Below the pieces are notes generated by a model. That model searched no databases. It was given only the letters and a program-made list of their open reading frames with translations, and was not told where the DNA came from. From Escherichia coli (GTDB lineage: Bacteria > Pseudomonadota > Gammaproteobacteria > Enterobacterales > Enterobacteriaceae), in the NCBI RefSeq assembly GCF_003334385.1, contig NZ_QOWN01000003.1: a stretch of 64,000 nt of DNA. One strand, 5' to 3'. Below are positions 59,486-61,241 of the stretch, in pieces. Made by a program: the position numbers and the translations under genes. Within the stretch, counting starts at the first letter, position 1, and each line of letters opens with the position of its first letter.

Positions 59486-60040
59486 TTACACTTCCTCCGG
59501 ATTAGCCAGATAACCAGTGGTATCGCCGGTCGGGCGGCTGTTGGCGTTAGGTTTGATAACGATATTGGGTTTTGTGAAATGCGCGCGCGGCAGTGGCGCG
59601 ACGGCAGCAAGAGTGCCGTGCTTCTGGCGCAGCTCTTCAATTGGACCGAACTCAAGTGCACGCAGCGGGCAGGATTCGACACATATGGGTTGTTTCCCCT
59701 CGGCGACGCGCGAATAACAACCATCGCACTTCGTCATGTGCCCTTTTTCAGCATTGTACTGTGGCGCGCCGTACGGACAAGCCATGTGGCAGTAGCGGCA
59801 GCCGATACAAACATCTTCATCAACCACCACAAAGCCATCTTCACGCTTATGCATTGCGCCGCTGGGGCAGACTTTTGTACATGCGGGGTCATCGCAATGG
59901 TTACAGGAGATGGAGAGATAATAAGCGAACACGTTCTGGTGCCAGACGCCATTATCTTCCTGCCAGTCGCCGCCAGCGTATTCATAAATACGGCGGAAAC
60001 TGACTTCCGGGCCAAGATCTTTAAAGTTGTTGCTCACCAC
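59486..60040 (-). pseudogene. ynfG: ynfG (DmsB-like 4Fe-4S subunit) lacking its first ~21 codons; N-terminus replaced by prophage-side sequence with a GTG start
   Basis: Window ORF begins (M)VSNNFKDLGPEVSFRRIYEYAGG...; K-12 YnfG as I recall begins MTTQYGFFIDSSRCTGCKTCELACKDFKDLGPEV... (205 aa). Identity starts exactly at FKDLGPEV and runs to the C-terminus. Confidence 0.8.
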
Positions 60041-60077
60041 TTGAAAGCGTGAGCTTAACTCATTCTAATTCAATTAC

Positions 60078-61241
60078 TTATGCTTTCTTTGCATCCTCAA
60101 AAACCTCATGGTGGGACAAATTTGGGACATCGTCACCCAATATGTCGTCAATTTTCCTCGCGTGCTCTGTCAAATGATTAGGTGCAAGGTGTGCGTACCT
60201 ACGCACCATTTCGATAGACTCCCAGCCGCCCATTTCCTGAAGTACTGACAGTGGTACACCTGACTGAATTAACCAACTGGCCCAGGTATGGCGGAGGTCA
60301 TGAAAACGGAAATTTTCAATTCCTGCCCGACGACATGCTGTTAACCACGATGTGTTATAGTCCAGGCGCATCTTTCTGATGCTTGGTGTCATTGTCCCGT
60401 CAGGCCTTCTGGCAGCAGTGGTATAAACAAACACCCAGCGGTGATGTTTGCCTATTTGATCACGCAACACCTTGCAGGCAGTGTCATTCAGTGCGACCCC
60501 AATAGCGCGGTTTGACTTACTGTCTTCAGGGTTTACCCAGGCAACACGTCGCTGCATATCGATTTGTTGCCACTCCAGATTAATAATGTTTGATCTCCTC
60601 AGGCCAGTTGCCAGTGCAAATTTAACTACAGATTTCAGGGGATCAGAACATGCATCAATGAGTCTCCTGGCTTCTTCTTTTTCCAGCCATCTCACGCGTT
60701 TGTTTTTTACGGCAGGTATTTTGATTACAGGTGCTTTTTCAAGCCATTTCCAGTCTCGCTCTGCGGCGCGCAGAATAGCCTTGATCATTGCCAGGTGTGT
60801 TGCTTTTGTTTGCGTGCTCACCGATTTAGGTATATAGGCTGGTGGTTCTTTCCCTTTTCTTAATGCAGCCTCCACCTGCAACTTCCATCTCTCCTTTGTT
60901 TTTCGGTTATACGCTTTGCTGATAACTGAGTAGATCATTGCCTCCGATATATCCTTAATCCTTATTCCCTCGAAATGCTCAATCCAGAATGCGATTCTGG
61001 ATTTATCGGAATCGATGGATTTCTTGTCGGCTTTTTCCTCAAGCCATCTCAGGCAGGCTTCTTCGAAAGTGACATCTGGCATATCCCCCAGTCTGTCTAC
61101 TCGCCAGAGTTCTGCTTTTCGCTTGTCGTGCAACTCCTGAGCTTGCCGCTTGTCCTTTGTGCCAAGAGACTCCTTAATTCGCTTCCCGCCCGGGAGCGAG
61201 TACGAGGCGTACCATATTTCACCTCTGCGGAAGAGTGACAT
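60078..61241 (-). CDS. int: Phage tyrosine integrase, Rac/Qin (IntR-like) family
   Basis: 387 aa [48 protein letters not shown]... closely resembles E. coli IntR; conserved C-terminal [40 protein letters not shown] catalytic region. Confidence 0.9.

Follow-up and report, generated by a model that had tools for sequence, protein, structure and literature searches.

Prophages at ynfG and related integration sites

Lambdoid prophages within ynfG have been reported in both Shigella and Escherichia coli. According to the passages of Gray et al. that concern the insertion, phiPOC-J13 integrates site-specifically into S1742 of Shigella flexneri and, in MG1655, into ynfG (PMC4193171); the corresponding passages on phage 75/02 of Shigella sonnei give the same integration site (PMC5447701), and those on E. 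coli RM10410 place a Stx1a prophage inside ynfG (PMC10562709). These prophages, together with that of STEC1589, occupy the site found split in the 64-kb stretch of E. coli DNA analysed here (the window), ynfG being S1742 in Shigella. Over the int-to-gam region the group is 94-97% identical to the window at the nucleotide level, with 97% identity for phiSTEC1589-Stx1c and 94% for the Shigella Stx1 phages 75/02 Stx and POCJ13. phiPOC-J13 and 75/02 are Stx1-converting phages; the prophage in the window can be read from int to the early-left genes.

Two primers used by Gray et al. connect the window to the published site. Stx_phage_dn matches positions 60499-60517 on the minus strand, S1742_dn matches positions 59294-59319 on the plus strand with one mismatch, at its last base, and the two primers face each other with a predicted amplicon of 1,224 bp, the published size. 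Because the junction primers match with the published spacing, the window is a further instance of the published phage-host junction. Neither the integration event nor the site nor the phage family is new to the literature or to routine annotation; to the published passages on the site the TTTAAAG core, the 26-codon displacement and the 87% identity of the integrase to the argU-targeting IntD, all described below, add a small amount of base-level detail.

Among other lambdoid phages, phage 21 and e14 integrate inside the icd ORF by tyrosine recombination and supply a substitute 3' end that keeps icd functional. They are like the ynfG prophages in having an intragenic att site in a protein-coding gene. 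The insertion in ynfG, however, lies near the 5' end of the gene, and the phage arm adds five unrelated codons and no Cys motif. As this arm brings no replacement N-terminus, ynfG, unlike icd, would be inactivated.

About 4 kb of prophage lie in the window, all of its genes being on the minus strand. Closest to ynfG, 52 nt from the core, is an ORF for a tyrosine integrase of 387 amino acids (60078-61241; intD in the PGAP annotation), which matches PHROG integrase families as well as Xer-type tyrosine recombinase models. It is overlapped by 145 nt by the ORF for an excisionase of 123 amino acids (61097-61468), a full-length match to PHROG 2907 (E 1e-43). Lambdoid early-left genes follow, including gam and beyond, and run off the window (61503-64000); among them are a DUF4222 gene (61503-61763) and the genes for a lambda-type exonuclease (exo; 61802-62482) and a Bet/RecT protein (62479-63264). 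The nearest relative of this region is Escherichia phage PhiR5_2 (98.6% identity), a lambdoid phage of 61.5 kb whose genes carry 933W-like annotations. Judging from the annotation of PhiR5_2, the gene content of the window's prophage is probably 933W-like too. No stx gene is annotated in the first 32 kb of PhiR5_2, a stretch that begins with int, takes in the lysis genes and reaches the packaging genes; the late region of the window's prophage, where stx would be, lies beyond position 64000.

Some annotations in these records deserve mention in their own right. At the excisionase locus, PGAP gives only a 66-nt 'helix-turn-helix, missing C-terminus' in the genome EC2, and PhiR5_2 has no annotated feature. 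Elsewhere in the window, fumC (36504-37907, plus strand) is an intact ORF of 467 codons, annotated as frameshifted in EC2, so that the window does not come from EC2 itself, and rsxC contains diverged internal repeats (14000-14520), detected as BLAST self-matches, that are 87-91% identical and are offset by multiples of about 96 nt.

The integrase is closely related to enzymes with a different, unrelated-looking target. It is identical at 336 of 387 positions (87%) to IntD of the K-12 prophage DLP12 and to the integrase of phage 2G7b, both of which target argU (loci compared: window 60078-61241, minus strand; L006 420-780; L009 224-300). The argU-type phages resemble the window's phage in the order int-xis-exo-bet-gam and in the geometry of the core, 7 bp of overlap between short inverted repeats; they differ in that their target is a tRNA gene while that of the window's phage is a protein-coding gene. 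The attP of 2G7b holds the last 45 bp of argU, from the anticodon loop CTTCTAA onward, and this tRNA 3' end rebuilds the gene, whereas the ynfG-type attP has only 7 bp in common with its target and does not rebuild it. Set in the same orientation, the ynfG-type overlap CTTTAAA and the argU-type overlap CTTCTAA are identical at five of seven positions, as are the int-proximal arms GTTGTTG and GTCGTGG. Residues 1-90 of the integrase are nearly identical to those of IntD, and the differences cluster at residues 91-150, 271-300 and 361-387. By analogy with the Int proteins of lambda and HK022, core specificity would reside in residues 91-150 and 271-300. The comparison suggests that a recent switch in specificity, from a tRNA gene to a protein-coding target, may have occurred within one integrase lineage, of the kind known for lambda and HK022.

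The ynfG breakpoint and the attachment core

Along the minus strand the window contains, in order of position, dmsD (57973-58587), ynfH (58630-59484), an ORF of 184 codons (59486-60040) and the integrase gene (60078-61241), with 99.9% identity to K-12 from dmsD through ynfG by alignment and BLAST. The ORF starts with GTG and its product reads (M)VSNNFKDLGPEV...; K-12 YnfG has 205 amino acids and begins MTTQYGFFIDSSRCTGCKTCELACKDFKDLGPEV..., the N-terminus that a preliminary description of this DNA had given correctly. Homology to K-12 runs from the ynfG stop codon at 59486 to 60025, which is nucleotide 79 of ynfG and the first base of codon 27, and then ends. The ynfG remnant (59486-60025, minus strand) comprises codons 27-205 and the stop, and its 179 residues are 100% identical to those of K-12 YnfG. 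Upstream lies a phage arm of 52 bases (60026-60077, minus strand), from the int stop codon to the core, in which positions 60026-60040 supply the GTG and the five phage-derived codons (VVSNN) that precede F27 in the chance extension of the ORF. A tripeptide, SSR, is shared by the translated phage arm and YnfG residues 11-13; it lies upstream of the GTG with no Cys motif after it, and was dismissed as coincidence. The preliminary description was right that ynfG is 5'-truncated and adjoins phage DNA, and its estimate of about 21 missing codons becomes 26 (78 nt) once the window is aligned to K-12 ynfG. No copy of the first 78 nt of ynfG, of the end of ynfF or of the N-terminal peptide is present anywhere in the window.

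To define the crossover core, the K-12 sequence was set against the two ends of the prophage in the complete genomes of EC2 and STEC1589. The empty site in K-12 reads aaagaT TTTAAAG Atcttgg, the window junction caacaaC TTTAAAG Atcttgg and the far junction of EC2 and STEC1589 aaagaT TTTAAAG Ttggttacg. The heptamer TTTAAAG (60019-60025, minus strand; CTTTAAA on the plus strand) is the sole block common to all three and is bounded by mismatches on either side; in the empty site it is flanked by a perfect inverted repeat, AAGAT/ATCTT. It is found at both prophage ends in EC2 and STEC1589, the window holding only the int-proximal one. Overlaps of 7 bp are those used by integrases of the lambda family. 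None of the deposited phage genomes of the group contains an uninterrupted ynfG-type attP, their records being cut at or near att (that of PhiR5_2 ends about 25 bases short on one side and begins just past the core on the other), and a contiguous attP was seen only in the argU-type relative 2G7b. A sequence for the ynfG-type attP was therefore put together from the two ends of the prophage.

In EC2 the other end of the prophage is about 59 kb away, beside ynfF, where a 28-codon 5' fragment of ynfG forms part of a 37-aa ORF, MTTQYGFFIDSSRCTGCKTCELACKDFKVGYVSFKIN (far-end region, L003 11371-13000). STEC1589 has a 63-kb Stx1c prophage with a far junction identical to that of EC2, again with a 28-codon ynfG fragment beside ynfF (L008 3400-3870). 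The 5' end of ynfG had been described as lost, but in these close relatives it is kept 59-63 kb off, at the other end of the prophage. Apart from the prophage, EC2 carries within ynfE a 6.6-kb island (L003 1166-7767), encoding a 526-aa site-specific integrase and several hypothetical proteins, which splits that gene too; the ynf operon of EC2 has two mobile elements inserted.

With high confidence, positions 60019-60025 can be assigned as the integrase-proximal att junction (attL in lambda nomenclature) of a lambdoid prophage of the phiPOC-J13 / 75-02 / PhiR5_2 group inserted in ynfG. The 'fusion' to phage DNA noted earlier is a genuine junction, but one that has no functional significance as a fusion: it is the int-proximal att junction with its 7-bp core. 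Recombination by the tyrosine integrase would have joined the phage attP to a chromosomal attB located within ynfG, AAGAT-TTTAAAG-ATCTT at codons 25-30, strand exchange taking place within the 7-bp overlap. Such an insertion would split the ynfEFGH-dmsD operon, placing ynfG codons 27-205, ynfH and dmsD directly downstream of the co-oriented int, and leaving ynfE, ynfF and ynfG codons 1-28 at the far prophage end, as is seen in the close relatives. If the source genome is arranged like EC2 and STEC1589, it probably retains ynfEF and the 5' part of ynfG, and its far end would read ynfF, ynfG codons 1-28, TTTAAAG and then ttggttacgtatcg.

Alternatively, there may have been no simple insertion, the 5' end of ynfG and perhaps ynfEF having been deleted or rearranged at or after acquisition of the prophage, in which case the gene could not be restored. 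The window stops about 4 kb into the prophage with the far junction outside it, the ynf region of EC2 draws other mobile DNA, as shown by the second integrase island in ynfE, and in the genome H90 the ynfG homology begins at another point. Deletion or rearrangement is nevertheless very unlikely, as the K-12 homology breaks off precisely at the 7-bp core used in the two independently checked complete genomes that keep the 5' fragment, and EC2, which is one of them, is 99.93% identical to the window over window positions 1-49752.

Of 5,426 complete E. coli genomes, 89 contain this 1-kb junction, with 99.6-100% identity among the matches listed; the uninterrupted ynfG site is found in at least 4,686 of the 5,426, and a split one in about 83-89. 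In EC2, PGAP marks the ynfG stretch as a pseudogene, 'missing N-terminus', beside a 'site-specific integrase', and the others are alike by their feature listings. Following a simple insertion, precise excision of the prophage would restore ynfG, since int and xis are intact and the core is exactly duplicated. It could be supposed from these same features that the prophage engages in active lysogeny, that is, that conditional, non-lytic excision restores ynfG and the continuity of the operon when Ynf or Dms is needed; in addition, the closest relative, PhiR5_2, has a deposited phage genome record that gives K-12 MG1655 as its host. Insertion into genes is common among temperate phages, however, only about 1.6% of genomes are occupied, and the occupying phages vary (stx-negative, Stx1a, Stx1c), a pattern that resembles ordinary sporadic lysogeny and makes active lysogeny extremely unlikely.

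The truncated YnfG product

K-12 YnfG contains 16 Cys residues in four groups (14/17/20/24, 67/70/75/79, 99/102/105/109 and 126/129/141/145). The first group had been reported as gone, and C14, C17, C20 and C24 are indeed all missing from the window ORF, so that it does not have the four-group, 16-Cys pattern for four [4Fe-4S] clusters. Consistent with this, the ORF covers positions 25-161 of the 161-position NCBIfam profile TIGR02951 (DmsB/YnfG), and K-12 YnfG covers positions 1-161. Alignments of the solved homologues PsrB (2vpw, where its chain bears the name 'NrfC protein') and FdnH begin at YnfG residue 4-7, and the N-terminal Cys group therefore belongs to the conserved fold. In the structures of NarH and FdnH, three group I residues ligate the cluster nearest the catalytic subunit (FS1) and one ligates a neighbouring cluster. 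There is no Shine-Dalgarno sequence ahead of the GTG at 60040, and the 184-codon ORF would be an accidental read-in from the phage arm. Because Cys14/17/20/24 are absent and a ribosome-binding site is lacking, the truncated YnfG, if made at all, is very likely inactive and would not be a working electron-transfer subunit.

One might still propose that phage-driven transcripts yield a shortened but functional YnfG from the 184-aa ORF initiated at this GTG. The frame is open from 60040, it begins 37 nt downstream of the stop codon of the co-oriented int without a terminator between them, and the 179 native residues are undamaged. Yet all four group I Cys residues, ligands of cluster FS1 in a four-cluster family, are missing, no Shine-Dalgarno sequence precedes the start, the genes of the partner catalytic subunits would lie about 60 kb off, under another promoter, and the PGAP call is a pseudogene; with these points against it, a functional short YnfG is scarcely credible. 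As to an assembly chimera of unrelated contigs, its probability is negligible, for nothing beyond the abrupt switch of sequence origin speaks for it, while the junction is shared with 89 complete genomes and reproduces the published PCR amplicon size.

What matters for annotation is that the 184-codon 'ynfG' ORF, lying at the att site of a prophage, is a pseudogene remnant and not a variant gene. The neighbouring integrase, in turn, flags a phage family to which Stx1-converting phages of Shigella and E. coli belong, so the locus is useful as a marker in screening genomes for such prophages.

ynfH, dmsD and transcription across the junction

Both genes downstream of the ynfG remnant are intact on the minus strand. 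ynfH (58630-59484) encodes 284 amino acids plus stop, 100% identical to K-12 YnfH, and has a strong ribosome-binding site of its own, GGAGGAAG, within the end of ynfG; dmsD (57973-58587) encodes 204 amino acids plus stop, 100% identical to K-12 DmsD. ynfEFGH-dmsD is described as one operon activated by FNR (PMC3688515; PMC5203670), and DmsD is essential to the maturation of DmsABC (PMC12096835; PMC10609526). The view in the preliminary description that ynfH-dmsD are without their native promoter context agrees with the single-operon model, in which the insertion cuts them off from the FNR-activated ynfE promoter (PMC3688515). If the prophage is as long as in the relatives, it would put about 60 kb between that promoter and ynfH-dmsD, so that the two genes, though intact, are probably uncoupled from FNR-dependent expression out of ynfE.

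Residual transcription of ynfH and dmsD would have to come from internal promoters or from read-through of int or of pL. A sigma-54 ChIP-seq site, IS21 (TAGGAATGGCTATTGCA; PMC4591121), has an exact match in the window (58636-58652, minus strand), inside the 3' end of ynfH and 50 nt upstream of dmsD; with this site intact, it is a possible, though unproven, candidate for a ynfE-independent dmsD promoter. A full-text search for published evidence of an independent dmsD promoter turned up only the single-operon model and this sigma-54 site, and none of dmsD, ynfH and ynfG is listed in the supplement of an in-vitro study of start sites. A consensus promoter scan of positions 57900-61800 found three sites, none of them in the phage arm or the 3' end of int; as 4.6 would be expected by chance, the scan is uninformative.

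Read-through from int into the ynfG remnant, ynfH and dmsD, on which the preliminary description suggested that dmsD expression may now depend, is physically possible, since int is co-oriented with these genes and there is no terminator before the remnant: no terminator-like site occurs in 60026-60077, and no stable structure was detected between int and the remnant (z = -1.24). The lambdoid int is normally silent in lysogens, and a lambda-style cII-dependent motif, TTGC-N6-TTGC, was not found upstream of int on the int strand. As in the int-attP-sib/tI arrangement of lambda, int is the gene closest to att and is read in the direction of att, and a terminator-like hairpin lies just across att, as seen at the far junctions of EC2 and STEC1589. 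With the hairpin on the other side of att, the prophage int is left without a terminator and can read into host DNA. The hairpin comprises two copies of the palindromic ATGCAAAGCTTTGT, with 17 pairs, about 70 nt inside the far junction in both genomes. Its position suggests that it may be an analogue of tI/sib; equally, the repeats could be protein-binding sites.

Beyond the hairpin are an antirepressor gene (ant) and ibrA/ibrB in EC2, and an antirepressor gene in STEC1589, in the same orientation as ynfEF. Given that shared orientation, FNR-driven host transcription could in principle reach the antirepressor genes.

Lysogens at ynfG might lose the Ynf selenate reductase and have less DmsD. 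Whether lysogeny at this site carries a real physiological cost, or rewires expression such that DmsD is limiting and dmsD is tied to read-through from int or pL during induction, is doubtful, and we consider it unlikely. If true, maturation of DmsABC and of YnfE/F would be impaired in anaerobic growth, and integration at ynfG would amount to a loss-of-function 'lysogenic conversion' common to the Stx1 phages of Shigella and E. coli.
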